NCBI RefSeq assembly: GCF_033153115.1
Contig: NW_026889772.1
Span: 11,904,001 to 11,968,000, forward strand
DNA length: 64,000 nt
Source: Saccostrea echinata
Taxonomy: Eukaryota
Direction of reading: 5' to 3'
Made by a program: the position numbers and the translations under genes. The notes below the pieces were generated by a model. It saw only the letters and a program-made list of their open reading frames with translations, ran no database searches and was not told the origin of the DNA. Below are positions 1 to 46,100 of the stretch, one piece after another (position 1 is the first letter of the stretch; the number at the start of each line of letters is the position of its first letter).

Positions 1-31
1 TTATTGCAGATTGTATCCGAACAACCGATCA

Positions 32-13226: not shown

Positions 13227-13292
13227 TAGTTGGTGAGTTACATCCCAATTTCGTACAGCAACACACAGAATTTGGGGTTTATAATTCGAAAA

Positions 13293-16156
13293 ATGGAAAA
13301 TCGTGAAAAAGATTCAAGTCCAGATACAACAATCTTATCTCAACCCAGCAGTACGACAGAGAAACCTTACCGAAACTTAAGGGAATATACGGATCAGCTT
13401 CACGTATGGTTGTATCAGTATCGAATGTGGAGCTCAATGCAGTCATTTTCAATGATGTTCCCAATAATGCTTAATAACTGCCAAATTCCCCAATATTTGA
13501 TTCCTAACAGTAACTCTCTATATACTCAACACACCACCTCTACGTCAGTATCAAGCCATACAACTACACACAACAGAGCACCGGTTCATTCTCATGGAGC
13601 TCGAATTCAAAGAGGTAACTGTGAATACTTATACAAATATATCTGACTGTTAATTTGTAGTCTCACTGAACTCGGTCCCATCTGTCCCTTACCCTGGCTT
13701 GTTCCTGAAAGTGCATTTTAATGAGAAACAGCTGAGCTGATTTGGCTGAATTTCATGTATTTTAATTGAATACTTACCAAATGAAGTGTGATTGTAATTC
13801 TCTGAAGTATATATCAGTATTAGAAATCAGGTGAGATCACAAAGCAAATTCCAGAATTCAAACTTTAAAGGTGATGTGGCCACAAACCAAACTCTCAATA
13901 ATGATTGCGTGCAGTGCGGCACCTGATCTCAAATACTGACATCACATATACTTTGGAGATTAACAATCACACTTCTGTTTGGTAAGTATAGTGTACTTTT
14001 TAAATTTTCCATCTGATCAGCATACATCAGTATCGTGATCACTTGAGAGATTTAAAATGTGGCCACAACACATCATTTAGAAAGTAATTGAATTAACCCA
14101 TTTATTATCTTAATTTCTGCTATGAAAACATAATAAATCATAAAGGTTACCAAATTTATTAAATCAATCAGTTTCAACACATGAGTTTAACACAAATAAT
14201 TTGTATTTTCGCTTAGATAAAACTGACAATTCAAAGTTATCACTTTGACATGTATTAAAGAGCATAGAATTGCACAACTGATTGAATCTGGGTTAATCTC
14301 CACATTGACTTCTGGGATTTGCTTGGCAATCTCTAGTGATCTCAATACTGATGTATGCTGATGGGGAATTTTACCCATGCATTAGGATTCCTTCGCCCCT
14401 TTATCAAATCTCAATCAAACACAGAGGTGGACTACTCATTAATAGAATCTTATAATTCTGAACAGTGTTGCTTGGATTATTAGGTTTTAAACTAGTGAGA
14501 GCTAGATCTTCTGTAGCTTGAAATATTTAGTACAGTTTATTGAAAATGAATCCAAAATATGTCATTAAAGTGAATTGAAGCACATTATTGCATTTTCATG
14601 GTTAATCATAAGAGTAAAACTAAGTTTGAAGTGAGATGAATTAATGTGGGTATTTTTTCTGTTTTTTTTTTATATTGCAGTTGGAACTGTATATTCCTTA
14701 CCACCATTGTGGAAGAGAGTAGCAGCAGAAATAATAGACTTTATTGTGTTATTTTATCTAAAAGTTATGATGACTGTGCTGGTTTTAAGACAGATGGGTT
14801 ATTTGTAAGTATTCTTGAAATTTTAAGTTTAAACAGGTGAAGTACATATTTATCAATAAATTATAAAGTAAATTTTTTATCCAGTCAAATACAGCGATAC
14901 AACCAGAATTAAATTATTGTAGAATATAGACTGTAATATTTAGTAAATATGATGACCTGCAATTCAAGCCTAGATGTGTGTGGATAGTTATTTGAAAGGT
15001 ACTACATGTAATATTAAGTGCATATACTAATGAGGTAATCCATCATTAATACATCAGCATCTATACAAGTGTTCTGGTAAGGTTATTGATCCCTGTCTGT
15101 TTTATATTATTGTAGAAGGGATGATAATATTATTGAGCTTCCTATGGACATAATGCCAAAGTTTGACTTTCTGGAGATTACAGAGATGGACGTGGAGAAA
15201 GCCTTCAGTATCACGTCAGAACTGATAGCTCTAGAGGTCGTCAACAGAATGATGATTACTGTGTTTGAGGTTAAGACTCGCTTATCTTATTTCATTATTT
15301 TTTTATAATTATTTACGAAAATACTCATAATATCCCTGAAATATAAGTGCAAAGAGAGAGCAAAACAGAGTATTTAATGTTTAGCTTGAAGTAATAATTC
15401 ATTTAAATACATGTATTGATATCTAAATTTAAAATAAAAGCTTTATCAGTGATCTCAATTATAATTTTTGACATAATGTTTCTTTCCCTCAGACCCTTTG
15501 TTTATGTAAAGGCTTAGGGGGAATGGTGGGTGGAGCTACGCCAGGCAAGAGGATGCTGGGATTAAAAGTTGTTTCTTGTATACACGTCACTCCACAAGCC
15601 CATGGAAAGGTACTGGTGTGTCCCGCACATGATATTGGATTCTTTAGGTAAATATTTATTAAAAACGTTGAAAATTTAAATATGTACATTTATATAATAA
15701 ACATTAATTTCAGAGAAATTTTTTTGGCACAAAATTACAAAGCATCAAAGTTTCATGTTACTTTGAGGTTATTAAAAATATATATTTCACAATATTAGAG
15801 TTATTTCATGTAAAACTTATTAAGTTAATAAAGTGGAATTTTATTTAATATCAAGAAATTAAAATGTTTTAGTTATACATTTCCATGAAAATAGCTGATA
15901 ACTTCTCCTTTTTATAGAAATAAAAAAGAAATATCTTTATTGTGACATAATTGGAAACAATTAAGCACACTATTAACACTAGATGGTTTCTCTATTTTAC
16001 AGTGCATTAATAAGATCTGTCATCAAGAACTTTACCATGGCATTCTTTTTCCCGGCTTGTTTGACTGTTTTTATTTTCAAACACAACAGAGCTGCCTATG
16101 ATATTCTGGCCAAGACTATAGTTGTGGACGCTCGGCCAAATCAGCAATTTGTCTAG
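13293..16156 (+). CDS. FAM8A1: FAM8A1 (RDD-domain membrane protein, HRD1/ERAD cofactor)
   Basis: Exons 13293-13614, 14681-14804, 15116-15269, 15493-15647, 16003-16156 have GT-AG junctions and consistent phases. Motifs: YTDQLHVWLYQY, PPLWKRVAAEIIDF, GGATPGKRMLGLKVVSC, RSVIKNF...PAC...HNRAAYDILAKTIVV. Confidence 0.93.
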
Positions 16157-20674: not shown

Positions 20675-23600
20675 TCATTTTCCATGATGACCATGATGAG
20701 CCACCACACTTTCCAGTCGAATGCGACTTAACCAGTAATGGCCATAACTAAGATTCCTCGAGTCCTTACGTATGAGCAGGGTAAAATTTCGATCGTTGAG
20801 AAATTGGTTTGTGTCGAGTTTGTGAATCTGCCATCTCAAATCCGCACCAAAGGTGCCATTATATGCTTCTTGAATGGCATGGTTGTTGAGTAAAATATCG
20901 ACTCTCCCAAGACCATTTATGGTTTTGCATGCGCTCAGTTGTAAGTTGGTGAGTGGTTCTCCATTCGTTTTGAAAGTGATGCTGACGTAACTGTTTGTCT
21001 CGGCCAGAATTAGGTAGTCATGTCTTGCGTGAGCGTGATTTACCGTGTAATTATTTTTCACCACTGGGAGTACCCTGTAATATTGCTCCTTTATACTTTG
21101 ACATATAGAGGCACTAACTCCAGCACTGTGACGACATGTCCTGTGTACTGGATCAAAGTCGAACAGAACAACATTCTCATACCAAGAATTAGAGCGATCT
21201 GCAAAATAGTTAAAATTATAATGGAAAAAATTAAAGTTGCTATGACAAGAGGCTTACGGATCTTAACTGCATTTGAGTGTCTATATGGCCCCCTTCCTTA
21301 TCTATAGTATTTTGTTCAAAAGAGAGTGCTTCAGACAAACCTAATAATGTATACTCCATGTATTAAGATATTTTTTATAAGAATTTGACGCATTGATTTG
21401 GGGAAGAATTTTTTGAATAAATCATTATAACGACCATAAGATTTCCGAAATGCTGACTTTTAACGACGTTGTTGAAATCTCTGTAACATCAACTTATTTT
21501 TCAGTAGCCTGTCATGTTCTTCAGTATCGAATAAGTTGGGCTACGTAAACACCATATGCAGGTGATAGTGAAATATATTACTACATGTATATAAATAGGT
21601 GACGATGAAAATGCTGGTCATCTCGTTTGTCATATAGTTTAGTTTGCCCTTATCGTCTATAGTCAGTAAAACATCAAAATACGAAACGGATATGGCAGAC
21701 TCTATAGCTGTAGTTTTTTTTTTTTTTTTTTTTTCAAGTTCACTAGGATATATCGAGTCAAAATATGAATGGAAGTAACTTGATAAAACGTCGTCGATAT
21801 TTCTGAATGTCTGTTGAAGGCCACAGCAAATGCATGTAGAAGTTTTTTGAAGAATTTCATCAACATTTACTATCAAAACAATTCTTTTAAAAGATAATTT
21901 ATAAGATTGATTGTGCATTTTAAAAGAGAATCATTAAATTATACGTTTCATTTATTGTATTTTTAAGTCTATACATAACATAGTTGATATTCAGCGTGTT
22001 ACATGTATAAACATTTTACTACATTCATTGTTTGATGTAAACTAGAATGTTGTATCTGTTTGTTTGCTGTACTAGTACTAAAGCGACTACATGAAATAAC
22101 AGAGGTCAGGTTCTATTTGATTACCTTCGTTTAGTGTTTCGTAGATTTCAAACCCTTTTAAATAGATAAACATGAATTGACAGTGTGCAATGTATTTAAG
22201 TTGACAAATAATTGTCTTAAAACAAAATACTAGTAAACAAAATAGTTTTCTTTTTCATCTAACAACGTTTGTCCATACACATGTACCTCGACAAAGTCCA
22301 CACGACTTTCTGCAGTATTGGGCTGTTTCACAGTCACTGCATATTGACGCTAGGGCAGCAGGATCACGACAGTCTGTCTCAGAGACATCTCCACAAGGCG
22401 TGTGTGGTGGTTCTTGAAAATGATCCACATCTAAACAAATATGTATGATAATAGAATCCAAGATTGCAACAAAACTTGAAATTCCCTATGTAAAACATAC
22501 CAGATCCCATTGCTATTACATATGTAACTGGTAGATTTAGAGGAACCGATTGCATGTGCTATCTATAAAAAATCTTTTGATCGCATGTTAAATTCTATAC
22601 CTGTGTTGCAAATCTCTTTAGGACAAAATTCAGTGTTATAAGACGTCACGTCTCTTTTTCCTATAACACCCTGCGCCGACAAACAAGCTGGTTTCTGTGG
22701 GGAAAAGATTGATATTGGAACGGATTATTGAAAATCGGTTATCTCTGATACCTGTATAATTAAATTATTTTTTCTGGTTCAGAATTGTATTGCTAAGATT
22801 TTATTTTTATGCCCCCGTATCGAAGATTCGGGGGTATATAGTTTTTGCCCTGTCCGTCCTTCTGTCTGTTTATCTGTTTGTCTGTTTGTCCGCAAAAACT
22901 TTAACATTGCCCATAACTTTTGATTGGCTGAAGCTATGGCTTTCAAATTGCACATGTGTATTCCTTGTGACAAGACCTTATTTTGGGTACCATCAAATTT
23001 GACCTTTTGACCTTGACCTTGGAGTTTGACCCAGTTTTGTAAAATTTTACTCTATGTTAACCTTGGCCATAACTTTTGAACAGTTGGTGCTAGGGCTTTC
23101 ATACTTCATATGTTTAATCCTTGTGACAAGACTTTTCTTTGGATACCAACAACTTTGACCCTTGATCTAGGAGTTTGACCTATATTTGAAAAACTTTAAC
23201 ATTGCCCATGACTTTTGGAAAGTTGGTGCTAAGGCTTTCCTACTTCATATATGTAATCCTTGTGACAAGACCTTCCTTTGGATACCAACAAATCTGACCC
23301 ATTGACCTTGAAATTGGAGTTTGACCTACTTTTGAAAAACTTTAATTTTGGCAATAACTTTTCAACGGTTGGAGCTTGGGCTTTAATACTTCATATATGT
23401 AATCCTTGTGACAAGAACTTCCTTTGGTATCATCGACTTTGACTCCTTGACCTTGGAGTTTGACCTACTTTTGGAAAATTTAACCTTAGACATAACTTTT
23501 GAACAGTTGATGCAAGGGCTTTCATGTTTAACATGTCTATTCCTTGTGACAAGACCTTCCTTTGGATACCAACAATTGTATTCTACTGATCTTGACCTTG

Positions 23601-26600
23601 GAGTATGACCTACTTTTGAAAAACTTTAACCGTGGCCATAACTTTTGAACGATTGGTGCTACGGCTTTCATATTTCACATATGTGTTTCTTGTGAGAAGG
23701 CAATTCCGTTCGCATAATTAATTTTGACCTTGACCTTGATGTTTGACTTTCTTTTGAAAAACTTTAGGCTTTTCCATATCTATTCAATGGTTGCTGCTAG
23801 GGCTTTCATATTTCACAAGTATATTCCCCGAGACAAGATCTTGTTTTGGGTACCAACATACTTGATTTGCATTTGAGAAAGTTTAACCTTTGCTATAAGT
23901 TGCCATACGGGGGCATCAGTGTTTCACAAACACATCTTGTTCTTTTGAGCAACACTAGCAGTTACTTTAAAATTTTTTTACAATTTTATTTTATTGACCG
24001 TATCGGTATATTAATTTGATCTATTCAATGCCACCAAAACATATACCCCCAAAACTTCGAAAAATTCATTTTCAAGTCTTATCATGGAGACTCATAAATT
24101 AAATGATATATCTCCTATAAATCACCCATCTAAAAGGATAGAATAGCTACTAAAAGCAAAACATAGAAGATTTATTTAGCTACTAAAGGCAATAACAACG
24201 AAAGGCAGTCTCAGAAGACTTAGAGTAAAGTAACAGAATGATTACACAGCTAATAAAAGCAATAGCAACAAAAGACAGCTTAGAAGGGGGAAACAGAGGG
24301 ATGACAACCAAATGCATGCAATATTAAATAGGCAACCTTATAAGCAAACAGAAGGAACGCTTAAAACAAGACAGAAACAGAAGATTATTGATATAACACA
24401 AGACAGCAAGGCAGACACAGAAGAAATAACTTAACACAAGACAGAAACTGAAGAAATGACTATTTAATGCAATGACAAGAAAAGGATTTCCTACTTATTT
24501 ATTCAATTTAGCTCAAATATGGTTGGTGTACATATTTGTTGAATAACAATTTTGTCAATGAAATTTGGAAAAAAAATATGTTATTGCATTTTTGAAATGA
24601 AGAAATTTCTACTCCCTTTGAGGTTTATGAAAATGCTCTAAAGGTTCTTCTAAAGCTTCTCATAATTATCGTTAATTAGAACCAAAGTAAATCAACAGGT
24701 GCTGTGGTATTCAGACTTCAGAAGAGCAAAGGTTGTAAGAAAATTCTCTTGGATCTAAAAGCCCCCATGATAAAAGAGGTTCGGAAAGAAGAATGATAAT
24801 TGACATTGTTAGTCCGTCCCTATGGAGAGCTCATTTATTAATAATTTTTCATGCAATGTTTCAAATAGGAAAGAAGGACTTGTGTAAAAAAAAATTGAGA
24901 GAGAGAGAGAGAGAGAAATCAAATGCATCTATATCTGTGGATTAGCATGAATAATTCTAATTTCCAACAACAAAAATTTCAAAACCTTTTGAAATATTTT
25001 GAGTAAAATTCATGGGTATACCTCAGCACAACCAAACTTCTTCGCCTTCGTTCCCGTTGAAAGAGTTGTTGTATTCACGTAGCACTGAAGAAAATAATTT
25101 TTTTTTATTGCACAAGCATTCCAAAATATCTTTGATCCTATCTTCGTCACTGTAACGCTAGCGGTTCTGCTAGAAATTGTTTTCATAGTACAAATAATTC
25201 ACTCAACTCCTTTTATAAATGCACCATTCGCAAAGAAGACGTAAGATTATAAACATTAACAATTAAATTTATTAAGTGCATTATCAACAAACAATTTATT
25301 TAAACGACGACATTCACACCACATTCATACCAAACTACTAATAATAAATAAGTTTAATAAAAATAAATAATTAAACCATAAAACAGACTGAAAAACCACC
25401 CCAAAAACCTAACGTCTATTTCCTATGCGTATAAAATATGTGACAAGCCGTAGTTATTTTTAATCTTGACTTGTAAAACTTAACACCAAGCTTTACTGTA
25501 TTTAGCAGGTTAGCTTGTTAAACTCCTAAAATACTTTATTAAATAAGGACACAAGCCGTGGTTATTTATAACTTTGACTTGTTAAACCTAACAACAAGCA
25601 TTACTGTGTTTAACAGGTTAGCTTGTAAACACTAAGGGCAAAGAAAGATAACTCTAATAATCATAAGTGAGTTTATCGAGAAGCAACGTTTAAAAATTCC
25701 CAAGTACTCTAATAAAATAATTTCTATTAAAAATAATTGAAGAAAAATTTACGTATCTAGAATAATTAAATTACTGTCTGAAAATAAAATAAATAATTGA
25801 CTTTCGTTGAACTAATCAACTTTAGTCATCATAAAAGAGAAAGATAGCAAACGTATAACTTTAGTTACATAGTTTGCATTAAAATAAAAATGAAATAAAA
25901 TAGAGTAAAAAATGTAAAATAAAATAATCCTAGATAAATTAATTACTGAAGAAGACTACTCAGTCATAGACTGTTGAGTCTTTAAAACAACCGATAGCGG
26001 ACAATAGTATTTCACTATTTAATGTCCTAGTCGGTTAAATTCTATTCTAACTAAATAAATCAAAAATAAAATAAATTCCTAAATAAAAATAAAAGATAGA
26101 CAAAATAAAAAATTAAAATAAAATCCTAAACAAAATCTGAGAGTTCCGTAAAACTGACCTACCAAATCAAAATAAGCAGAAGAGTGACTAAAAATTCTCA
26201 GCGTCTAACTTTTATATGACTCTATGACAGAAAATAACGGAAAATGCTGGAAAATGACAGAGATATTAACAGAATTATTAAATTATGAAATTTCATTGGA
26301 TTATCAATTAATGATCAATTATATCGAACAATCTGATTGGTCAATAGTAAAACGTCACGATCTTTCACGTGAACAAGTGTCACCAAATGTTCTATACAAG
26401 TATGAAATAATTAATTCTTACATATTTATCAATTAAATTAAAAATATATTTCACAATAAATAATTAAAACAAAACAAACTGAACTTAAAACAATATTCAG
26501 TTAATCTCGAAATACAGTCATTCATAAGATACCGCCATTCAAACTCGATATATTTATCGGTTATATTACAAATGCAAGGATAAATTTATCAATTACTTTA

Positions 26601-27946
26601 ACAAGTTTCTAAACCGGAAGTACATCGTAATGAAGCGCGAAACTGTCAAACAATGTGACAACAGAAGTTTAGACTATTTCACAGGTATCATATCAACTAA
26701 GTAACACTAAACCAACAACAGTCACATACTGTTTCACACAGTTATAGTCTTAGGATGTATACTTAAGTGCTGATTTACAAATGACATACTTTATTAATCT
26801 GTTACCAAACTCTAACTCAGTTCGAATTATCTCAGTCATGTTTATATTATCAAAATATACCAATCTACCCTTGTTTCACAAGCATATACATTTACAATTA
26901 AGTGACTTAGGTACAACTCCACGAATAGCACATTCATACAAAACAAAGTAAAACTGTGAATAAACAAACTTCATCAACCCGCTCCAAATCACCACAATGC
27001 ATGATAACATATTACAGACATTGACCCTATTTGATAGAAAAATCAACCCGCTCCAAGCTCACACATATATAGTAAAATATTACAGTCATTGACTCAGAAT
27101 GATTAAACACTGTTGTGGATAAAATAAAAAGTTACACCATGTAACCTAACATTACTATTATTACATCATTTAAAAAAGGGGGGGGGGTCACATGCACTAC
27201 AGTCACATATGAGTAATTTATGTTACACATATGAGTAATTTATGTTACACATATGAGTAATTTATGTTACAGATTTCGTTTAGTGGCCAATCATAATCTT
27301 TGATTGAAAGTGAAAAGGAATAAATAAAATAGTCTTAACTGTTCTTACAGTTCTTAAAACAGATTTCAGAATTTATTTAGTTATTAGTACTTGCTTCCTT
27401 TAAGTGGTGACTATGTTAAGATTTCAGTATCTATGAAGTTATTGGTACTTGCTTCCTTTGAGTGGTGAGTACTTTAAGATTTCTGTATCTATGTAGTTAT
27501 TAGTACTTGCTTCCTTTAAGTGACGACTATGTTAAGATTTCTGTATCTATGTAGTTATTAGCTTCCTTTAAGTGGTAAAGAGTATACATGTATTAATATT
27601 TTTACATATACCTCATGTGCACATTCCACAAGGGTGATACATTGGTCAATGTTTGATGATGTAACACCAGAACAAGACAGACAATGAAGAATCGGAGCTG
27701 AATATAAAATATATTTCGATAATTGGCATGAATATGCATGAAGCTAAAGTGTATTCTTTCAACTTTCAATTAAAGTTCGCAAATTTTCATTTGTTTTCAG
27801 CGGGCTTAAATATCTGCCATTATACAAGAAGTAATTAAAATATATTTCCTACAATTATTAGAACGGTTTGTAAAAAAAATACTTACATGTGTTTTGTCCA
27901 CAGGCAGTAGACCAAAGAAAGCAAAGGAAAAACAAGTAACTCAAGT
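20675..27946 (-). CDS. Paralogue A: secreted Ly6/uPAR-like + ShKT + His-rich beta-sandwich-like protein
   Basis: Exons 27946-27887 (LSYLFFLCFLWSTACGQNT, signal), 27697-27612 (PILHCLSCSGVTSSNIDQCITLVECAHE), 25084-25022 (CYVNTTTLSTGTKAKKFGCAE), 22694-22601 (KPACLSAQGVIGKRDVTSYNTEFCPKEICNT), 22430-22287 (ShKT: CGDVSETDCRDPAALASICSDCETAQYCRKSCGLC), 21198-20675 (C-terminal domain ending AHHGHHGK*). All junctions AG/GT with consistent phases. Start exon uncertain (candidate ATGACCG|gtaacg at 28288-28282). Confidence 0.85.
21420..21860 (-). mobile_element. Degenerate Naiad RT fragment in the last intron of paralogue A
   Basis: ORF 21541-21918 contains TFRNIDDVLS..FHSYFDSIYPSELE..SVSYFDVLL. Confidence 0.85.
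22804..23941 (+). mobile_element. HINE/Helentron-like element carrying ~6-7 tandem ~130-140-bp repeats
   Basis: 5' hairpin ATGCCCCCGTATCGAAGATTCGGGGGTAT, (TGTC)n microsatellite, repeated TCCTTGTGACAAGACC...GACCTTGGAGTTTGACC units, and a 3' subterminal inverted repeat ATACGGGGGCAT followed by GTGTTTCACAAACAC. Confidence 0.8.
27203..27272 (+). repeat. 22-bp tandem repeat x3 (CACATATGAGTAATTTATGTTA)
   Basis: Direct inspection. Confidence 0.9.
27360..27576 (+). repeat. ~58-bp tandem repeat x3.5
   Basis: AGTTATTAGTACTTGCTTCCTTTAAGTGGTGACTATGTTAAGATTTC units. Confidence 0.85.
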
Positions 27947-28669
27947 CTGGAGGGAAAAACAATTAATGTGGTAGTCAGAAATTCAAGAGAAGAAACAAAA
28001 CATTACTTTTACTTTGGACCTAATTTATATCATATATGTCACATATTGATACATGTATGTCACAAAATAAACTTAATGTTTTGAAAAAAAGGAAGCAAAT
28101 GAATGCAAACATTATAATTGCCTCTGCATTATTTTTTTTCTGCTTGACTCTTAATTGATTAAAATTTTTCCAAATTTCATTATTAAAAGCAGTATAACAT
28201 TTTGCTCACATTTCATAGCCAATCTGTTCATAATCCCATACAAGTGTTCTAGAATCAAGCATACATATTACATGACGTTACCGGTCATAGATAATTATTT
28301 ATATTATGATATGGTCCTGACCTGCTCTTTCACCTGAACCTGAAGAAATTACGAAGTTTTTTTCTTTCTTCGCGCGATCGATTGCAAGGACTATCTATTT
28401 TAGTTTATATCCTATTTTTTTTCCAGAAATGATTATCATTTATTATTACTGGATCATTGGGTTTTTTTTTTAAATATGACAAAGCAAAGCATGACTATAT
28501 TCAGATCATATCTCCCATCAGCTGGTAAAAGAACGGTCTATTTCACGAGTTTCCTAGTGGTCACCATAACCCAATTTTAATCTTAAGTATGGATTTAAGG
28601 TAAAATTGGGTATCAATGAATGAACAATAAATAGCCTTTTAAACAAAAATAGTCTGAACATGGATTAAT

Positions 28670-28985
28670 GAAATATGTGGAGATAACGAACAGTATTCGA
28701 GCTCAAAAGTCCATTAAACATTACAAAATTAGAGCAGAGCAAACACGGACCTCTAAAACTTCAGAGGTGGGATCAGGTGTCATGAAGGAGTGAGCATCCC
28801 CTGCCGACAGGTCACACCCCCCGTGTGCTCCTTGTCATGATCGGGGAATAACGGAAAAATCCGTCGTCAATTCAGTGTGTAAATAATAGTATGAAAAATG
28901 TCAGTCAGCATTTGACTTAATGATAGATTGTATTTGCTGACAAGGTCATTGAATCGACCATAGAACTTACGAAATGATGACTTTA
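28670..28985 (-). mobile_element. Naiad 3'-terminal fragment
   Basis: Near-identical to the reverse complement of 56040-56360. Confidence 0.9.
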
Positions 28986-29674
28986 TGATTAATTAAAATA
29001 TTCATGAACCTTTGTTAACCAAATTGAATGTTAAGTTGATATTGCTACAGAACATGTTTATCTTTGAACAAAGGCCCAGAACAATGTTGCTGTAATTATC
29101 CTTCTTCAGATTTTCATGTATTAATGCAGGGTGGACTTTGGTATAAAGGTATTGTTTTCTTAATTATAATTTTATCAATTGCAGAATAACCCATATGGGA
29201 AAATCAACATAATATATGAAACATCTACTCACTATGAATCGCCAAAAATATCACAGGCACAAATAATGAAACGTGATGATTCAAAAATAGACATGACCAG
29301 ATGTATGATAAAGCAATATACACAATTACGTCCTTCGAAGAGAATAAGGTCATTTTGTCAGAATACTGAGATATTAAATCAAGTACTATAGAGATGCTTA
29401 ATAATTATACTTTAAGGACGCTGCGTCACAATTAAGATAAATATCTTTAGTTTTATGAAACGATGACCACTGAGAAAGGTCGCTCTACTATAAAATGATA
29501 CTAAAATAAATACAGTAGCATTTAACAAAAACTTTTTTCTCTGAAAATTTAGGTTATAAGTGCTGTATTACAAACGAAGAATCAAATGGATCAGATCATT
29601 TTAAAGACGAAGGACATGGATTATTTTACATCCCTCAGCATACAAGATATCTCTCGAAGAAATGAATATTATTT

Positions 29675-31670
29675 TGTCAGTGTTTTTGTGGACCAAATAT
29701 TCCAACAATCTGTTGGAATTCCCATAGACACAAATTGTGTTTCTCTATTAGTAAAAATGTTTTATATTCTTATGCAGCAGAATTTGATTTCAGAATTTCT
29801 ACATATGAAAGTTAAATATAGTTTTGGCCTTCAATTCGATAATTTGGAGATATCGACATTTTATCTAATAACAATATTCATTTACATTTATATGAACGTA
29901 GATTCTATATACACTTAGTGATCTCGAAATAAGATTCTGTCACATCCATTTTGTATTTGGATGTTTTACTATTACAAATTAACAAATATGGAGATAACGA
30001 ACAGTAATCAAGCTCAAAAGTCCATAAAATATATACAAACAAGGAGCAGAGCAAACACGGACCTCTAAATCATCAGGGGTGGGATCAAGTGCCATGGACG
30101 AGTAAGAATCCCCTGCTGACTGGTCACGTGCTCCTAGTCATGATCGAGAAAACGGTAAAATCCGCAGACAATTCAATGTGCAATCATAGCCTAACAATTA
30201 GTATGAAAAATATCAGTCAACTTTCGACTTAATGATAGATTGTATTTGCTGACAAGGTCATTGTATCGACCATAGAACTTGCAAAATGATAACTTTAAAC
30301 GAAACTTTTGATATTCTTGTTTCATCAACTGTTTGTCAAAAGCTTGCCCCCATTAAGAAATTGTTCGTTCGTAGAGCATGCTCTTGCATATCAAATCAAT
30401 TGAAAGACATAAATACCATCTGCAGGTGATATGGGTATATTGCTACTTAAGTTAGAGAAGTTGACCATAAAAAAAGTTGAAGTCGTCAAGTTAATCATTA
30501 AGTGGTGTTGTTAGGTTACCATTAACACCTTTTTCTAATAAAATATTCGAATATGAAACAGATGTGTCAGACTCTGTGCTATCTTTTATTTCAAGTTCAC
30601 AGGGAAATATCGAGTCGACATATGATTGGAAGAAACTATTATTAATTGATAAAACGTCGTCTTGATATCTAAATGTCGAGTTGAAGGCCACAGCAAGTGT
30701 TTTCTACTTGTCATTTACAAGTTTTTGAATAAATTCTGCTTCATATGAATACAAAAATAGGTCTGCTAATTACGGGGCACAATAGGTACCCAAGGGAATT
30801 CTGACAGATTGTTGGAAGACTTGATCTCCAAAAACTACATATTGTCAAGAAACTCAAGCATCTTTTTAATATCAGAATTTTCTTTAACAATTTTTTTTAT
30901 AAATGATCAATGACAAGGTAAATTAATTTAAGACTCCCATTTTTATTTAAAAAGCAGCTTTCTATGATGTCAAGAAGCCTGGATTTTAATTTATTGTTGG
31001 GAATAGTTGTATAAGAGTTGAAGAGTCATACATTTTGATGTTATTGATTTTGTTAAAATTTTGTGAATTCAAATTTTCTAAAAGTTCCTTGGAGTTTTTA
31101 AGTTTCCACATCTGATTTACACGACTTCTCAAATATATTGTTGTACAGTACTATTTGACAAATTGAATGAACTTCAGCTTTTCCATTGTAAACTTCCCAT
31201 ATTTATGCACCAATATTCAATTATCATCCGCATTAAGGTATATGATGTCTGCGTCTTCTTCGGTATTCAAGAGGATGATCTTTGTACGATCAACATTCAA
31301 ACCAAGGCATGCTACTGACTAATAAGTTAATGTTAAAAGGGTTTCAACAGTATCGTTTATTGTCAGCATTTTGAAAATTCTATGTAATCTTTATAATGAC
31401 ATTGTTTGCAAATACAGTCTACTTTGGGTCGAAATTTTAATATGACTCATACTAATTATTATGCCATGAATTTCATACTTATTTTGTCAGCGGATTACCC
31501 CGTTTACTTTATCATTTCAAAGGGCTCACGGAAGAAGGGATGCTTACTCCTCCTAGACATCTGATCCCACCTCTGGTGTTTCCATGAGCTCCTGTTACTG
31601 CCCTCCTATCGATATATTGTTTATAAGATTAAAGAGACTAATCACTGTTCGTTATTAGCACCTTTTTACA
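29675..31670. mobile_element. Compound Naiad insertion: + fragment (29675-29970), - fragment (29985-31150), + fragment (31155-31670)
   Basis: FQQSVGIPIDTNC on +; AFNSTFRYQDDVLS plus a full 3' UTR on -; FSFSIVNFPYLC plus the UTR motif GGGATGCTTACTCCTCCTAG on +. Confidence 0.85.
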
Positions 31671-31822
31671 TTTCTGAACTACTTAATGTACAATAACTAT
31701 TACTCTTCACCCAAGGCCAACAGTAAACAGCCATTCAACTTATCAGGTATGCTTTTCATAAAAGAAAAATTAATACCAAGGGGAAAAACTTTCATAGAGT
31801 TTTTATATAATTTTATTAAAAA

Positions 31823-34800
31823 TTAATGATTATGATGGGCAATGATGCTCTCTACTCTTATACGGCTTATCCAGTAATGGCCGTAGCTATGAGTAACGCT
31901 ATCTTTTTGGATTTTCAGGTCAAAGGCACTTGTGTTATTCAAATTGAATGTATTCAGCTTGTGGATTTGCCATCTTAGATTCCATACGTCAGTCCCCGTG
32001 TATGACTGCTTTATTACGTTGTTATTCAGCAAGATGTCGACTCTTCCGTGCCCAGTTGTTTGACATGCGCTGAGCTGTATACTGGTAAGAGGCTCTCCAT
32101 TTGTCCGGAAGTTGATATTAATATAGCTGTCATGGTAGGGTAGAATTAGGTAGTCGTGTTTGGCATGCGCGTGATTCAGGGTGGTGTTATTTTCCATCAC
32201 TGGTACCACTTTATGATTACTTTGAGTGATGCTATTGCAGATTGAAGGATCAACTGACGAACTATGTCGACAGGTCTTGTGAACAGGGTCATAGTCGAGG
32301 AGAACTACATTCTCATACCAAACGCTATTGTGTGCATTATCTGTAAAAAAAAAAGTTACCATAAAAGAAAATTGTGCATTAAACTTGTTAATAAATTGTA
32401 AAATAATCTTAATGTCCATGGATATTTTCAGTAAAAAGTCACATTCTTACTTTGACATATTCCGCATGATTTCCTGCAGTATTGCGCATACTCGCAGTCA
32501 CTGCAGATGGTCGATAGCTTGGAATGATCATGGCACTCTGTGGGTGTGGCATCAACACACGGATCTGTACTGGGTTCCTGAAAGCGGCTTATGTCTGAAA
32601 AGGTAATTTATACTGACTTTTCATTTTAAGTCTATAAACTGTGCATAATCTGAGTGTTGAAGGCAGAGGAAATCGTGTATTCACAAGAAAATAAAATTGA
32701 CAACTATTCACACTATTTATAATGCTTTTTTTCTATACGTAACATTTTATTTATGCATTTTGTTCTGTAGTGCAATAATATTCCGATTCAAAGATAAATC
32801 ACTGAATGTGAGAGGTGAACTATATATACTGTCTGAATCTGTCCTGGGTCCAGTGTGTCCCTGTGGCTGTCGCAATGAACATATGTAAGCTGGCCTATAT
32901 AAATGAGGACTTACTAGGTCTTGGGAAATAATTAAAACTGTAACCAGATCTAGATATTCAATTCGTCAATATGGAAGGACTATAGAGAATTAATGTACGT
33001 GGTGAATACAACAACAAAAAGATCCTCTCTGTACACCCTGATCTACACTCCTAAAGTCTTGCTTGATACTACTGATAAGTCTACGGACTTTTACTGAAAA
33101 AAAAAAACTGGTTTCACTGATGAAAAAGATGAAGACTAAACGACCTGAGTTACACAATTCCTTTTTGCAGAATTTTGTCTGTGTTGTTTGTGTAGATGCC
33201 TGTCTTCTACCCACAGTAGAGGGGGGTGCCATACAAGCTTGTTTCTGTGAATATTTGTTTAAAGTTAAACTTGAAAGTGAGAATAAGAAACTCTTATAAT
33301 GTTAAAGGATGAATATATATGAAATTTTCATAAAATAATTACAAAAGTATTGTTCTGACAATAACTCATTCACAGAAATTACCTGGCTTTTTAAAATATT
33401 AAACTATTGGACCCTAGATAACAAATTTAGGCATGCAACAATAGTTTTAAAGTTAATATAATAATATTAAATTGGGGGGGGGGGGGATAGATATATTTTA
33501 TCTTTAACGAGAGATTTGTATCTATTAAGTTTATAACATACTGTTAAAAAATAAAAAAAAAAATATTAACTCCTTCAGCGAACGCTGGAGTATTGTTATT
33601 GAGAGTTGTTTGACATCTGATAAAGTTCTACTTACAGGTGCACATCCAAAATTTCTAACCACTGAGCCGTCAGCCGCAGTTGTTGTAGACACATAACACT
33701 GGAAAATAAATGTATTGCATATAGGCAACCTCATCATAAATATCTTCATATTTACATACCGTTGTATTGAGCTTTCCCCTGGAATATTCATTACTGAATT
33801 TACCTAACAGAATTGCTATAGTAAACTATATTTTACTATAATTATCTATAGTATACTATATTTTACTATAATTATCTACAGTATACTATATTTTACTATA
33901 ATTATCTATAGTATACTATATTTTACTATAATTATCTACAGTATACTATATTTTACTATAATTATCTATAGTTAACCAGAGTATCAAAATTTTTTACTTG
34001 AATAAATCAGTTTCAAAACATCCACTATTATAATGAAGTCAATCAAAGATTTTCACTGTACAAGATCAGTCTCAAAGATTTTTCTATAGCAAATAAAAGT
34101 ATTTACCATTCCATACTGTAAGAAAGTTCCATTTTATTTACAGTAATAAATCAGAGTGTGTATTTTTACATTATACTATTCTTTAGTTTACTATAGAGAA
34201 CTGTTCTTTACTATTAAAAAACAGTGGTTTAGTAAAGTTAATTATAATAAAAAAAAGTTCAAAGTTTTGCCAAAATAAATAAAAGTGTCAATTTTTTTTT
34301 TTACTATAGTTAATTTCCATAGTGTTCGCTACAGTAAATATTTTTTTTTTTATTTGTAAATCTCAGTATGGAAATGTTTACCATAGTTAATAAAAGTATC
34401 ACAGTTTTTGATAAAGTAATTCAAAGTACCATACTATTCACCATTACCATAGTATTCGGCTTGGGGCGAATTACATTGAAAAGTAACGCATTACATTACC
34501 ATAACGTCAAGACTTTGAGCATTAAATTACCATTACCATTACTCTAATTTCTTTAAGTAATGCATTACATTACCATTACTTTAGTAAAGTAATGCATTAC
34601 CATTACCATTACTTCTGGGAGTTTTCAAAATTAGAAATACAAACTTTTGCAACTGTTTTCATATACATGCATCCAAATTTGATTTCAAGTATTTGTACTT
34701 ATTACATTGTAAATAACTTACATAACATTTCTTTTATTATTACTTACATATCTTTTTTTATGCAATTCTCAAAACGATACATTGATTTAATTGTTACATA

Positions 34801-35647
34801 ACCCCAGAGACATTGTGTGTTTTTTGATGACACTCTATTCAAAAGGTGGCAATTATAAGTTTACAGTGTACATTAATTAATTAGTGTACCTCATACCGGA
34901 ATTATTTAAAAAAAGATTTTTTAAAAACTATTTGAAATAATTCTTTATAATTAAATCTTATCTAAAATAAGCATGAACATTTAAATGTATGGTAATTGTA
35001 CTTTCAACAGAATAAAAAGTGTATTTGAATAGATACAGAGTTTTTTAAATGGGTTAACTTCTTTCATTCTATCATTAGTAAAAAAAATTAACCTAAACAA
35101 TAATTTCCATGTCCCATCTTCCAACGAAAATTTTTTTTCCTCTCCCATTTTTATATCAATTAAAACTTCGCTAAATCACTTTTTTTGGAACCAAATCCAC
35201 TCAGACAAATTCTGAATCTGGCCATGACATTAAATTACGGTGAACATTTTAAGACATCTTCACAAACCTCACTGGAACACTCAGAAAGATACACACAAGG
35301 ATCCGCGCCATTTTTTACATTTCTGCACAACAAACAGTGAAGAATTGGATCTAAATAAATCAAAGAAATAAAAAAAAACTTCACACAAGAGTTTGAAACG
35401 TAACCATTTAATTTCATTTGATGAGAAGAAATAATCACCAGGGTCTGCCAATGTCAGTGCCCAGATTGCACCAATCACGATTAGACAGCTGTCTATATAT
35501 TTATGAAAATAATAAAAACTAATGAGCAAAATTCATTCATAAAAAATGAACAAAAAATAGCTCAGCACAATTTAATATATATTTATCTGTAATAAATAGC
35601 AATAATATTTATCTAGAACGAAACAGACACCTACTGATTCCGTCCAT
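31823..35647 (-). CDS. Paralogue B: secreted Ly6/uPAR-like + ShKT + His-rich beta-sandwich-like protein (complete 7-exon model)
   Basis: Exons 35647-35635 (MDGI), 35492-35439 (NSCLIVIGAIWALTLADP), 35350-35268 (DPILHCLLCRNVKNGADPCVYLSECSSE), 33698-33636 (CYVSTTTAADGSVVRNFGCAP), 33244-33145 (KQACMAPPSTVGRRQASTQTTQTKFCKKELCNS), 32594-32451 (ShKT CVDATPTECHDHSKLSTICSDCEYAQYCRKSCGIC), 32340-31823 (ends AHHNH*). All AG/GT, phases 1,1,0,0,1,1. Confidence 0.9.
33825..33972 (+). repeat. 30-bp tandem repeat (ACTATATTTTACTATAATTATCTAYAGTAT) x~5
   Basis: Direct inspection. Confidence 0.9.
34455..34612 (+). repeat. (CATTAC)n-rich repeat element end
   Basis: GGGGCGAATTACATTGAAAAGTAACGCATTACATTACC followed by CATTAC arrays. 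Confidence 0.6.
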
Positions 35648-36497
35648 TCTGTAGTTACACAATACCAGCTGATAAGTACATTTATGTATATCTATAGAAC
35701 CTGTTTCTGATATGCACACCTAGTACGGTAGATAAACAAGGTCAGAAAATTTATGACACATAAATAATGCATATATCTACTAAGGGGAAACATACTTTAA
35801 GAAACATCAACATTGCTGTCTTTATAGCCGCTCTTTCTAAAGTAAGTTCAGGTATCGTCTCGTATCCTTTCTTCTTATCCTGGTCAGTCCGTCCATTTGT
35901 CACACATCGTCATCAAATTCCTCTTACATATTAAACAGTAGTCAATTTATCTTTTAAAATATGATTGGTGGTGTCATGAAGATGTGCAATAAGGTTTCCA
36001 AATTTTTTTTACCCAGAGTACCAATCGAGGGTCGACAAAAGACGTTTTTTTTCTACGAAAACCAGGTTCCAAGAAATCCTCTGACATTTAACGCAATAGC
36101 TAAATCATCTTTTTGGAAAAGGAATGGTTCCATAGATGTGCAATAAGATTTCGGAATTTGATTTCATAGGGGTTGCGCTTTGGGGTTTAAAAAACAACTT
36201 CCATGTTCTTGACTTCTTATCACATTTTACACAGTAGCCAAATAATCTTAAGAAGGTTTGCTTTTCATTTTCATCCAGAAGGCCATTTGAGGGCCAAATT
36301 TGTTTTAAGATATTAGATGCATAACAGAGGGATATTTGCTATTTTCAATATATACTCAAATTAAATAATGCTATTAAAATGAATTTAAAAGATGACCAGA
36401 ACAAACATGAACTAAAAGAAGTGTATGAACAGAAAATTTATTTAACATTCAGTGTTAATTTTAAGCGTTATCTCTTAATGTTACCTCTAAATGTGTA

Positions 36498-36626
36498 NNN
36501 NNNNNNNNNNNNNNNNNNNNNNNNNNNNNNNNNNNNNNNNNNNNNNNNNNNNNNNNNNNNNNNNNNNNNNNNNNNNNNNNNNNNNNNNNNNNNNNNNNNN
36601 NNNNNNNNNNNNNNNNNNNNNNNNNN
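36498..36626. other. Assembly gap (N run)
   Basis: Run of N. Confidence 0.99.
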
Positions 36627-36639
36627 AAGTAACTATTGT

Positions 36640-37865
36640 TAATTGTTAACATAGATATTGTCAATCAGAAGCTCGAGCATCTTTTTAATGTCAACTTCAG
36701 AGTAGTTGTATGTACAATCAGATTGTTTTTTGACAAAGTAATTTTGCAAATGACCAATGACAAGGTACGTAAATTTACGAGTTCCATTTTTATTGAAAAA
36801 GCAGCTGTCAAAGATGTCAGAAAGTCTAAACTTTAATTTATCGTGGGGAATAGTTGTATATAAAGTTGAAAAGTCGTAAGTCTTTATGTTGTTGATTTTG
36901 GTAAAATTTTGTGATTTCAAATGTTCCAAAAGTTCCTTGGAATTTTTTTGTATCCACATCTGATTTACACCACTTCTCGAATATACTGTTGCACAGTACT
37001 CTTGAAGTTTCTCCTTCACTACTGTTAATATCTTAGTGAGGAGTAAAGAAAGAGGCTTGGTAGAACATTTACTGGAACCTGCTATGTATCTTTGTTTGTA
37101 AGGATTTTTATGAAGTTTCGGAATCCAATATAGATATTGTAATCCAAATTCAACCTTGTTGGTTGTTGGGAATATTAAAAATATTGAAGAATTTCCTCCT
37201 TAGAAAGGGAGCTATGGGTATAATTTGAATTACCAGTTGAAGAATTAAATCCCAGTTCCTCTAAAATACAATTTATATAATGAGCCTTACAAACAAAGAC
37301 AATGTTGTTACCTGCTTTTTCATAAGGGGATCAGTACGTACTGATCGTGTAATCTATCTAATTCTTTTTTCACTTCTGAATTGTTGAATACAGAAGAATA
37401 GATGGTGTTCATACTGCCCCTCAATCGTTTAATGCGAGATTTTAACATATACTTGATACATTTAATTCATTCTGACAAAGTGTCAAGGTCTTGTTTTTCA
37501 TGTCTGACCCAACGCCTGGTGTAATCCTCTACAGAATCCATAATATGTATGAAATAACGACGCCAGTTAAAGGATCGGGGTTCCCAATGATTATGACCTT
37601 TTAAAATTAGTGATCTAAGGTCCTCATTATTAACTATATTTACGTCACCAGTAATAACGTGTCCAGCAGGACTATAGTTATAGGGTGAAGAAGAACATGA
37701 ACACGAAGGAGGATTATGTTTCAGTTATTCGATATCAAGGCCCTGTAAAGTTTTCTTAAAATTAAAAAGTTTGGAAGCAATAGTGGATGTATATTTGTAG
37801 GAATACAAGGTGTAGTCTTCAACTTGAAAATATGGTGGAATACAAGACTGGACCCTTTACTATGA
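36640..37865 (-). mobile_element. Naiad internal fragment (CxC linker to RT fingers), frameshifted
   Basis: ORF 36639-37019 is highly similar to the 753-aa RT (KEKLQEYCATVYSRSGVNQMWI...TYDFSTLYTTIPHDKLK); upstream sequence matches PSCSCSSSP/GHVITGD. Confidence 0.92.
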
Positions 37866-40165
37866 TTATGCTAATATAAGGTCCATTGGACCCGTGCTCG
37901 CCTCCAGCATTTTATGTTTAATTTGATATATGTATATTTATATGCAAATTATAGAATAAATATTGTTTTGAGTCTTCACTTGTTAACCAGGTGAGAAGGA
38001 GCATTTTGTTTTTAATTTATACTAAACCATTGCTCATTACTTTACAAACTTCAAATGTAACTGGTTCTTTTTTGTTAAAAATACCAATATTTCCATTTTA
38101 AAAAATACATTTTAAAGTGCCGATGATTCTAAGCCAGTCATTGTAAAAATGTTAGCATTCTTTTCAGTTCATTTATACAAGCCTTATCTACTTTGTCAAA
38201 CTATATATGTACAACTTTAACTGGTATGTAAACGGAAATGTAATTCATGCCCTTCGTAAAACTGATAGACTGTAATAGTAGCTGAAAATTACGAACTATT
38301 CCGAAAACCTGTGCTTTGTTTTTTATTCTTTTACATATTTCCAAATTTAGGAATTAGAAATTTGCAAGGATCAAAGATAGTATATTAGAATAGTTAACAT
38401 GCAATATATGTGTCATCCCGAACTAATCAAACGGTGCGATATTGGAGCTGAAAGCAGAGAAAGCGACTATTTTAATATTTGGTAAAATTCCAAGCTTTCA
38501 GAAATTTATATAGTTTATATTCAATTGCAACGGCAGTCATTTTGAAAATTTTAAACACCAGAAAGTTGGAGAGATACTTACATATCAATATTGTGCAGGT
38601 TGAAAAACGTTTAGACGGAAAAAACGAAAAAGAAAATTTCCCCATTTACAGTGCACAAATTATCCGATCATTTTCATTTTTTAAAATTTGTTTTAATTTT
38701 TGCAGAAATCAATTTTGCATGATGGAAGGAATACTCCTTTTATGTTTCGAAAGAATTATCTGTTTTTTTACTGAGAATAATGAGATTTAATTTTTCATAT
38801 TTCCTCTGTTTCAATGACAATAGTGGCCATTTTGAAAATTTTAAAGTAAAAATTGGCTACAAGTATAAGGAACTCGAATGTAAGGAAATTTTGGTTATAA
38901 AGAAATTATATGATTTCATCATCCCTCAAATGATAATATTTTTTATATGAATATAAAGAAATTCGGTTATTAGGAACTAAAAATCCATGTTTATAATAAA
39001 ATCTTTGGTACTCATTTTCCTTTGATTCAGATATACTAAATACATCAAGTTTAAAATGAGTGAATTTCTAGCATGATTGAAGGAAGTGTATGATTCTAAA
39101 TATATTGTTAACCTACTTTGTGTTTCACTAGTGTTTTACTGTCTCTTACAGAGAGTTTATTTTGAAATATCCCACCATGCTTTTCAAAGATTTTCCTACG
39201 ATGACCTGCTGTAAAGTAATACCGAGTAACCATTTGCTATCTTTAAAAAATACCAATTAAGAAGATTGGCGAACAAGGTAAGCGAAATGCTTATGGTGCA
39301 ACAAATATGAAGGTGAGAAATCAAATCTCAATCATAATCAAATTTTCTTTGATATTTTATCTAACATTAAATTATTCTTTATGTAAAATCTCCATAATTT
39401 GCAAAAATCTCACAAAGATTAAAATTATTTGCCTATGAAATAGCATACAAACACCAAAGAGGGCAAAAAGGGTCATTTTCTCATATTCTAACACAAGTTT
39501 TCCATTTGAGTTGGTCTTCGCTCCATTTTTTTGAAAGCTATCTGCAAAGTTTGCGTAAAATATAAAATTTTTGGCTAACAAAAACATGGAGCAAAGACCC
39601 AAAATACCTTAAAAATACTTGAAGTCCATTTAGTCAAGGGTCATATCACAAACATGATTTAAATGCCACTATTCATCAGGAATTGTGTAGCGCGGTTGTT
39701 CCTTGTTAGTCCTAAAGGAGAATGATATTCTGTCTATTGTCAGGGTTCGAACCCCAGGAATATACATTTTTGTTAAATAATAGAATAAATTTTGCCGAGA
39801 AAATTTCTTCAGAAAAGTTTTGTTTGTCATATTTTCATGAATTTCAATAATGAGAACTTTACTCTAAATACTAAATTCACAATTTGAATATGATTTTATT
39901 TAACTGAAGCTATAGGCATTCTGCACGCCATGTTAGCCCATCTCCTTCTAAAAAAATTAAATTGATTCGTCCCATTTAATACTTTCTTTATGAGTATATA
40001 AGGAATAACGGTCCACATGACTTGCACGGCAGGTCTTCTATTCACAAATTTGTCATTTTTGTGAATAAAATTTAACGCAGAATTATTAACCATTTTATTT
40101 AGGCTCCTGAACTGTATGAAAATGACAGAAAAAATATCGTTCTTCAGATCGAATTATTCTTTATG

Positions 40166-43100: not shown

Positions 43101-46100
43101 AAATGTTGACTTTGAACGAGAATGTTGATATCCTTGTATCATCAACTTATTTGTCTTTAGCTTGCCTCATTTTAGAAATTGTTCATAGAACATGCTCTTG
43201 TGTATCGAATTAACTGGGAGATATTAACTCCTTATACAGCTGATAGTGGTATAAGGAAAGCTGACTATAGAAAAGTTGAAGCCATCACGTTTATCGTTTT
43301 GTTGTTAGTTTGCCATTAATGTCTTTCTCTTGTAAAATATCCAAATATGAAACAGATGTGTCAGACTCTGTGATGTCAAAATACATTAAGTCAAAATTAG
43401 TCCCAGTGATAGGTTGTATTTGAAACTAGGTCATTATATCGACGATAGAATTCGCGGTATTGTTGAAATACCTATAACATCAACTCTGTCAGTAGATTGT
43501 CTCAATTTAAAAGATCGTACTCAGAGCATGCTCTTGCGTACCGATTCAGCTAGGAGACATAAACACCATACGCAGGTGATATTGGAACATAAATAGGGGA
43601 AGTTGATTTTATTCCTCAAAGATGGTAATGTGGATTTTCATGAGACTTTTTTAAAAAATGATTGATAACTAAGAGGCTTTCCATACTAAGAAATAAAAAA
43701 TTCATTATTTTAGAAATTTTATCAGTATCTAAACATCTCTGAAACAGAGACTGTCTTTCACGACCATTTGATTGTCTTTAAGTTTTGGCAATCGAACAGA
43801 AACCTCCAAGTTACTGGTTTCTTATATTTATTATTTATCACAAAATTATAGATTGATAAACAATAATTGTTTCTTAGGTTAAAAGTTAATTTTTAAAAAA
43901 TAGAAATATTCGTAACAAAATTAAGTCTGTCGTTTGTAATATTTTAAATACATGTATTGTTTTTTTTTTTTTTTTTTTTTTTTCATTTTAGAACTAATTT
44001 AAAGTACTGAAAAGTATGTGCGAAAATCCTTGGTGCTTTTTTTGTTTTTATTTATTATTATTAGTATTTTCTTATCTATTGATTTCATTTTTTCGTTTAT
44101 TCAACTTAGTTTTGTTTTTTACTTGCCTGCGTTGCAGATCTCCTTTTTACAGTATCTAGTTTTGGTGACGGATGAACTTCTTTTACCAAGAACATTCGGA
44201 GACACTGCGCATTTCTGTGAATGAGAATGAAAGAATATCAAGGGTCATGAAACTTGTTTGTCTTCTTTGTCTTTATTTATTTATTTACGTATTTATTATT
44301 ATTATTATTTTGGTCATGTCGAGAGTTTGATATGGTTTGTACATTGTCTTACATTTTGATTCTAATAATTTGATTTTCTAGCTTCATCAGTCTCCTTTTA
44401 AAGACGACTGAGAAAAGGGGTATCTAAATGTTGTAGATTTTGTTCCAATAATATACGGATAAAAAGATCCCAAACTACATTGCCATCTCAAAATAGATTG
44501 TTAAAGATCTTTGAATGAAGCTAGATCGACATTTGTCCGTCGTTTATCAACCGCATCCACACCAGTCCTGTCACAAGATAAACTTTTTTCAGACCGAATG
44601 TTTATATTTAACGAAGTGTCTTCGCCCCTTTTCAGGGAAGATTGTATAAACATTTACAAAGTTTAACTTATAAAAGTGTCTTTACAAAGAGATGAAATTT
44701 GAAAATACTGGTTTAGTTGCACATAATGCAAGAGTATTTGATTTTATGATAATGTTGTAATCATGAAACTTTCTATTTCTGACAAATTTCTCTTGACTCA
44801 CTTCCAATGTTTTGCACACAGATTCTTAAGACTAAAGCTTAACTCAGAAAAGCAAGAATAATTGGCATAATATTCTTGTAGAGTCATATAATTCCCATAA
44901 AGCTATGGTTACGGGGGCATCAGTGTTTCACAAACACATCTTGTTCTTTGTACATGCATGCAATGGTGAGATTTTTGAGCTTAACCATTATTGAAATATA
45001 CTGGTACATGTAATCAAAGTGGCCTCCAGGTCCGGTCACTGTCACTAATTTAGATGTGTAACTATTATGGATAATAGTAATAATGCCAATGTAATTAACT
45101 GTAATTCATATGGATATGTACACAAGCATACTTTAACATATTTGTTTAATATCAAGTATTCCACTGTTGCTGTTTTCCTAGTAAGCCAATGTATGTCGGT
45201 CAACAGTTCTATAGAGCTTGTGTTATGTTGTTATAAAAATCCGATGTTAAACAAAATTTTCTTATTCTGAAGGTATACTTGTATTTCGGTGTTATTTGGG
45301 TATTTGTCGAAGTATACCTTACAAATATTTATTCATAATCACTAAATTTCAACCAGTTTTGGAAAATTTTTAAAATTTTTGAAAGTGTGACCTTTCAACA
45401 CCAAAGTGTAAACTGTGTACTTTGAAAATACATTTTATGTACATCTCAAAAATGTTATTCAAGAATTGATTGATTGATGCATTGTATGTTGTTAAATGTT
45501 CCATTCGAAAATTTTTCACTCATGTAGAGATGTCAAAGCTATTAAAGAACGCTGAATTCAGATTCATATGTTGTAATCATGCCAATAGTTTGACTGCTTG
45601 ATGTCCATGGAATATAGAGGATTTTTGAAAATTACATTAATTTTTATGGTTTTAGCTCAATCCCTTACGTCCCAGGATGGCAGGGACCATAATATTCACA
45701 ATTTTGTCATTTGCCTTGAATACTCTATATACACAAAAATTCATTAGAACTGGTTTTTAAATAACGGTTTATGAGAAGAAGCTGAAAATGACCGACGCAC
45801 GTATTACGGACGAAATCAGATAGCAGTATGTCAACTGGGTGAATCAGGTGACCAAATAAAGCGTATCATATACTTAGTAATGTATACAGGTTTATGCCTG
45901 ATGTCACAATACATGTAGAGCTCTGTATTAGCTTCTAGGGCTTATCCGGATCCTGCAGGGCTGATATGGATCTGCAGGGCTGATACGGATATTTATTATA
46001 TACCCAACTGTTTGTCACTCAGTTTTACTGTTGAATTTACGCAATCACGAGACGATGTGATCCGACGTTCCGGATCACCACACTGTGGTTTTCTGAATCC

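Follow-up and report, generated by a model that had tools for sequence, protein, structure and literature searches.

Three-finger domains of the Ly6/uPAR (LU) family are treated as single-chain binders, and the processing described for them in the papers cited here lies outside the fold. In the canonical LU domain, ten cysteines are paired 1-5, 2-3, 4-6, 7-8, and 9-10, with the 7-8 bond closing loop 3 (PMC6600238). Loss of this bond is a rare known variant (PMC6600238). The present work concerns three tandem minus-strand genes (A, B, and C) in a window of 64,000 nucleotides from the oyster Saccostrea echinata (assembly GCF_033153115.1, contig NW_026889772.1, positions 11,904,001 to 11,968,000 of the forward strand), each of which carries a Gly-Lys/Arg-Arg motif, G-[K/R]-R, inside an LU-like domain.

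Several described systems resemble this arrangement in part. Dibasic processing and Gly-derived amidation both occur on the same scaffold in snake three-finger toxins, but there the sites are outside the fold, in the N-terminal propeptide and the C-terminal tail, whereas the oyster site is inside loop III (PMC12390062). Nothing points to a venom role for the oyster proteins. Negative regulation by cleavage has been reported for AMHR2, a three-finger receptor (PMC9256959). Cuttlefish SPalpha and SPbeta are molluscan secreted Cys-rich precursors in which dibasic cuts and amidation are shown by mass spectrometry; they differ from the oyster proteins in having another cysteine pattern, many sites each, and, in the listed peptides, no LU-type Cys-Asn ending (PMC3484142). 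Their cysteine pattern rules them out as LU proteins. The known cleavage of uPAR is in the linker between domains, not within the fold. For insulin-like peptides, a convertase cut within a disulfide-bonded fold, giving two chains, is proven; their fold is unrelated to that of the oyster proteins, whose cleavage is predicted only. The motif itself is familiar from neuropeptide processing, in which G-K/R-R is cut after Arg, a carboxypeptidase trims the basic residues, and PAM carries out amidation.

Genes A and B encode, in order, a signal peptide, an LU-like domain (three exons), a ShK-like exon, and a CBM-like last domain. An earlier note on this DNA, made from the letters alone, had placed the motif in one homologous exon of the three genes, and this is confirmed: the heptapeptides VIGKRDV (A), TVGRRQA (B), and VLGKRSS (C) are all found on the minus strand (Table 1), in homologous exons with a phase-0 AG acceptor and a phase-1 donor, which is GT in A and B and GC in C. 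The window holds 28 G[KR]R tripeptides in 127,996 six-frame codons, and the chance of one in a 20-residue loop is ~0.4%; the three copies are paralogues, hence not independent of one another. The basic pair of the motif is the sole [K/R]R across the 310-330 residues of the chain in 4/4 Saccostrea A/B proteins. In the AlphaFold2 model of the gene B protein (12 sequences, mean predicted local distance difference test score, pLDDT, 56.5), strands at residues 29-32, 43-46, 50-57, 63-70, and 91-97 follow the LU order, and the motif (residues 83-85) falls in a coil (71-90, pLDDT 30-35) between strands 4 and 5, a position predicted to be exposed and flexible. Because the 7-8 pair closes loop 3 in the canonical pairing, the motif of the modeled domain is assigned to loop III.

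Conservation of the motif in orthologues, on which the earlier note had made its reading depend, was examined in an alignment of 12 sequences, consisting of 10 of 17 homology-search matches and two cluster members (the seven omitted matches are without the loop region). G-[K/R]-R is kept in 12/12 of these oyster homologues, with Gly and the final Arg invariant and the middle residue Lys or Arg, while the proteins share only 42-56% identity. The accompanying claim that the flanking loop residues are unconserved is right for most loop columns and wrong for the residue before Gly, which is Val, Ile, Leu, or Phe in 12/12. The residue after the motif is Gln in only 2/12 homologues; cyclization of a new N-terminal Gln to pyroglutamate is thus possible in the B lineage only, and a conserved pyroglutamate is ruled out.

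The motif also extends beyond these oyster proteins. Five matches came from a profile search against 1.84 billion representatives: three family members or fragments, one Mytilus relative, and one spurious bacterial repeat. The Mytilus protein, the nearest distant match, has the motif in both of its LU units, and the motif is present in 18/18 LU units of eight Mytilus proteins, these units representing three or four types retrieved by motif-containing queries. In the oyster genome, Pfam PF00021 gave two weak matches, a number that could not supply an unbiased sample, and DNA patterns were used instead. A motif-blind pattern covering the domain end only (C-x2-C-C-x2-D-x-C-N) gave 95 matches, compared with three for the reversed pattern as control. 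All 95 were translated and sorted by acceptor and Cys position into 53 long single-loop exons like those of the window, 37 exons with further cysteines, and five unclassified; at 50% identity, the 53 long-loop exons form 28 clusters, from each of which one representative was taken. A [K/R]R pair occurs in the loop in 19/28 clusters (5000 shuffles: mean 5.7, maximum 13), Gly precedes the basic run in 11/28 (shuffle mean 0.74, maximum 5), and strict G[KR]R is present in 7/28 (shuffle mean 0.71, maximum 5), although the class rule was set after the sequences had been viewed and homology remains among the 28 clusters, and both the shuffle and the binomial figures consequently overstate independence. 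A basic site is present in only two of the 37 exons with further cysteines. In all five loci found via the preceding exon alone, the exon that follows carries a Gly-led basic site; two of the five are near-duplicates. Seventeen of the 37 exons belong to one tandem array of near-identical Lys-rich LU-like exons (G000:C47:8513378-8538470; L147-L149).

All 19 sites end in Arg, and none is directly followed by Leu, Ile, Val, or Pro, which make up 27% of loop residues. Within the loops, which are 14-30 residues long, the site floats, and its distance from the cysteines is not constant. The Arg codons of these sites are mixed (AGR 9, CGN 10), and a splicing enhancer or other DNA-level cause of the motif is therefore ruled out. 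Published LU proteins extend the comparison (all from PMC6425005 supplement 2, in the part excerpted): the motif is present in one of two LU units of a chiton protein and absent from a second chiton protein, a Dreissena (zebra mussel) protein carries it, and a scaphopod protein has a dibasic variant of the site; annelid, entoproct, and gastrotrich proteins there have no Gly-led basic pair in the loop, but are of other subtypes. On sequence grounds, the motif belongs to a wider subfamily of mollusc LU domains and is not special to the three genes, and its context is of the convertase and amidation type.

These data bear on two other explanations. One, which we consider unlikely, is that the loop stays uncut and that its Gly-basic-basic tip is a flexible positive patch that binds acidic glycans, membranes, or a receptor, in the manner of the basic tips of other three-finger proteins. 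Cleavage is so far only predicted, 9/28 relatives do without the site, a CBM-like domain is present in the protein, and the hydrophobic-Gly-basic turn seen in 12/12 homologues is plausible as a binding tip; against this stand the lack of fixed Cys spacing and the occurrence of two sites in some loops. Protease rules also fit Arg-final sites that are never followed by Leu, Ile, Val, or Pro better than a fixed binding surface does. The other explanation, that the site is an inherited subfamily leftover with no present role in the three genes, strikes us as very improbable: it would agree with a site that is ancestral in the subfamily and lost in 9/28 clusters, and with the apparent truncation of gene C, but not with a Gly and a final Arg that stay invariant at such low identity while most neighboring loop columns vary.

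The domain that carries the motif shares with Ly6/uPAR proteins the Cys spacing, the terminal Cys-Asn, a predicted five-strand topology, and phase-1 outer introns (PMC6600238, PMC13719153). The oyster genes differ from them in the loss of Cys8 with Cys7 kept, the use of three exons per domain, the processing-type site in loop III, and the fusion to ShK-like and CBM-like domains. Cys8 is replaced by Phe or Tyr in 12/12 homologues, and the domain has nine cysteines instead of ten; Asn directly follows the last LU cysteine in 12/12, and the cysteine counts of the LU, ShK-like, and last domains are 9+7+3 in 9/9 full-length homologues. Most subfamily members retain both Cys7 and Cys8. The same loss of loop III closure, likewise in multidomain proteins, is found in uPAR domain I and other N-terminal LU domains without the 7-8 bond (PMC6600238), and the oyster genes differ from uPAR domain I in that just Cys8 is replaced. 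By sequence and model, the domain is LU-like but departs from the canonical form.

A domain-only LU model was built from the C. angulata homologue P0003 (pLDDT 57). Its top 33 VIA-align rows are all three-finger folds (best Z 5.9, root-mean-square deviation 4.2, 67 aligned), with Lynx1, Lypd1, GPIHBP1, Prod1, and TEX101 as structural matches; Foldseek ranked the same three-finger folds first, none at E<=0.001. The Atlas model gave template modeling scores of 0.69-0.70 to mollusc UPAR_LY6 clusters, and Atlas feature scores of 0.78-0.83 are leads only. A Pfam scan of 10 proteins listed no LU family (CL0117), and the sole match of a PDB sequence search, a ferredoxin, was taken as chance. The ShK-like exon has ShK-like Cys spacing plus a seventh cysteine, and PF01549 scores 18.8 bits for P0036, the best, and 10.1 for P0034, at a cut-off of 20.9. 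The last domain of the B model is a beta-sandwich like CBM36, CBM35, and CBM6 (Z 13.3, root-mean-square deviation 2.2, 120 aligned, 8-12% identity), to which Eph and reelin domains also align (Z 10-11); carbohydrate binding by it is predicted from the fold alone.

We propose that the predicted secreted protein, made up of LU, ShK-like, and CBM-like domains, would be cut after the motif Arg by a proprotein convertase, that a carboxypeptidase would trim the basic residues, and that PAM would amidate the Val, Ile, Leu, or Phe preceding Gly; these steps are likely by analogy with established neuropeptide processing. Cleavage of the loop III motif is, in our judgment, probable. The fuller reading, in which convertase cleavage and amidation would give a two-chain LU protein with its halves held together, we regard as evenly balanced. 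The N-chain would comprise ~62 residues (6.5-7 kDa, seven cysteines) with fingers I and II, and the C-chain, of ~25-27 kDa, would hold strand 5, Cys9-Cys10, and the ShK-like and CBM-like domains. Finger III, once cut, would become a short arm with an amidated end, and the cut would likely serve to switch a secreted glycan-binding protein into its mature form. The genome has nine matches to convertase P-domains and 38 to copper monooxygenase C-domains.

The earlier note had offered two outcomes of such a cut. Its disulfide-linked two-chain protein is favored as to the two chains, but the usual Cys7-Cys8 bond is impossible here. In subfamily members with both cysteines, that bond would tie the chains as in insulin; because Cys8 is lost in the three oyster genes, another tie is needed, which would be either a disulfide between Cys7 and the seventh ShK cysteine or packing of the chains via strand 5. 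What may hold the chains together is the weakest step of the proposal. Its other outcome, release of an amidated N-terminal three-finger fragment, is a poor fit, as strand 5 and the Cys9-Cys10-Asn clamp both lie beyond the cut; on the model, a freed N-chain would be without the last strand and last disulfide and so would not be a three-finger fold, which makes it unlikely as a released fragment.

It is likewise improbable that the cut frees the amidated N-chain, with fingers I-II and seven cysteines, as a signaling or defense peptide and leaves a ShK-lectin chain. With Cys8 lost, the two sides of the cut are not joined by any canonical bond, amidation is usually the mark of a bioactive peptide, and a second KR between Cys6 and Cys7, just before Cys7, in 5/9 full-length homologues (P0003, P0006, P0036, P0037, and P0040) could free a short amidated peptide; this second pair, however, is found in 0/4 Saccostrea A/B proteins, the piece would contain an unpaired cysteine, and Cys8 is kept across most of the subfamily. 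The oyster and scallop ganglion peptidome supplements (PMC8398477, PMC5996578) contained none of the queried terms.

Two further observations concern processing-type sites. Two basic sites in one loop III are seen in L130, L132, L140, L155, L058, and unit 1 of Mytilus P0054; by analogy, such paired sites would excise a short linker, in which these loops resemble the excised C-peptide of insulin. The C-termini are His-rich, both in the window (20675-20700, minus strand) and in homologues, and the chain closes with G or G-K in 5/12 aligned homologues, which may be a second signal for amidation.

A number of points weigh against the two-chain reading. The dibasic site is missing from 9/28 clusters and Gly from 8/19 sites, so that on the sequences neither the cleavage nor the amidation step is needed by the fold. 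The sites are KR or RR, with R-X-K/R-R in 0/28 cluster representatives, and would therefore need regulated-pathway enzymes of the PC1/PC2 type; the monooxygenase matches are not specific to PAM. The partner of Cys7 among 19 cysteines is a guess, and one cysteine stays free. Loss of the 7-8 bond destabilizes single LU domains (PMC6600238), and a cut would loosen a Cys8-less domain further. The models are of low confidence (mean pLDDT 56-57; best Z 5.9), and the whole case is built from them and from sequence statistics, including the shuffle figures qualified above.

The gene structures are collected in Table 1. The last exon of gene A is 100% identical to S. echinata LOC133191288 (NCBI label; P0001), genes B and C match LOC133191289 and LOC133191290, and the genome has exactly three matches to the last exon, all inside the window. 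For gene B, a 921-base contig (run X1) joins six exons and a contig from run X2 joins four; the motif exon is spliced on both sides in two of the four sequencing runs compared, none of which is on record as RNA, and the spliced contigs inform on splicing, not on tissue or level. A hydrophobic N-terminal exon in A and B, spliced in B, was judged by eye to be a signal peptide; in gene A, canonical splice sites and presence in the orthologue P0002 suggest that it is used. The signal and first LU exons of gene C were not found upstream, either in the remainder of the window or within a further 20 kb, and the public model is also without them; gene C is therefore probably truncated, or incomplete in the present assembly. 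An inverted repeat that looks like a foldback or miniature inverted-repeat transposable element lies ~1.8 kb upstream of its first surviving exon, and fragments of a retroelement are found between the three genes.

Table 1. Positions of the motif, exons, and neighboring features in the window.
Feature	Position	Strand	Remarks
Gene A first coding exon, signal-peptide start	28210..28231	-	Matches P0001/P0002 N-terminus; GT donor
Gene A signal-peptide exon	27887..27946	-	AG/GT, phase 1-1; 72% identical to orthologue P0002; skipped in public model P0001
Gene A LU exon 1, Cys1-4	27612..27697	-	Exact in P0001
Gene A LU exon 2, Cys5-6	25022..25084	-	
Gene A LU exon 3	22601..22694	-	Cys7, loop III G-K-R, F for Cys8, Cys9, Cys10-Asn
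Gene A heptapeptide VIGKRDV	22667-22647	-	
Gene A ShK-like exon, 7 Cys	22287..22430	-	Pfam ShK in homologues only under cut-off
Gene A last exon, beta-sandwich like CBM36/CBM35/CBM6	20675..21198	-	3 Cys; His-rich end closing G-K; fold taken from B model
Gene B first coding exon	35635..35647	-	Matches P0034 start; GT donor
Gene B signal-peptide exon	35439..35492	-	RNA joint to following exon
Gene B LU exon 1	35268..35350	-	Exact in P0034; RNA contig
Gene B LU exon 2	33636..33698	-	RNA contig
Gene B LU exon 3, G-R-R	33145..33244	-	RNA contig
Gene B heptapeptide TVGRRQA	33217-33197	-	
Gene B ShK-like exon, 7 Cys	32451..32594	-	RNA contig
Gene B last exon, CBM-like domain	31823..32340	-	RNA contig; structure model
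Gene C LU exon 3, G-K-R	44127..44214	-	First recognizable C exon; GC donor at 44126-44125 (GC-AG intron)
Gene C heptapeptide VLGKRSS	44193-44173	-	
Gene C ShK-like exon, 7 Cys	41285..41428	-	
Gene C last exon, CBM-like domain	40166..40686	-	4 Cys
Inverted repeat	45993-46591		Arms 247 bases, 99% complementary; spacer 105 bases
Retroelement, reverse-transcriptase-like by eye	53865-56141	+	758-codon open frame
Open frame of another probable gene	8770-9423	+	GNAT acetyltransferase-like by eye
Open frame of another probable gene	13230-13646	+	
Open frame of another probable gene	49832-50788	+	
Short frame ending C-x4-C-N	3-31	-	Beside masked stretch; possibly end of another LU-like exon

A survey of invertebrates from 2026 puts the number of three-finger proteins at ~83 per mollusc genome and describes mollusc LU fusions with 7TM, C1q, fibrinogen, Ig, and MAM domains; the excerpted main text has no mention of ShK or CBM fusions or of internal sites (PMC13719153). 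In the literature searched, with most subscription papers outside the search, no description was found of a loop III processing site within a three-finger domain, and no paper was found that names the five gene identifiers. Overall, the observation of the earlier note is confirmed. Its interpretation is partly supported by sequence and models, through the conserved motif and its convertase and amidation context, and is extended from three genes to a mollusc subfamily, the released fragment being the part that fits poorly.

More broadly, and only tentatively, the analogy with insulin would suggest an old and large mollusc three-finger subfamily, reaching from chitons to oysters and mussels, in which convertase cleavage opens finger III and is followed by PAM amidation of the end it creates, with excision of a C-peptide-like linker in some members. 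In the oyster genes, a bond to the ShK-like domain might then stand in for the lost one to Cys8 and link the switch with a lectin-like domain. If this is true for a sizeable share of mollusc LU domains, it would be a new way of regulating the fold, aquaculture species would contain a set of amidated products that has gone unnoticed, and recombinant uncut forms may not show native activity. The fold, known so far as a single rigid chain, would then become a protease-switched two-chain module.

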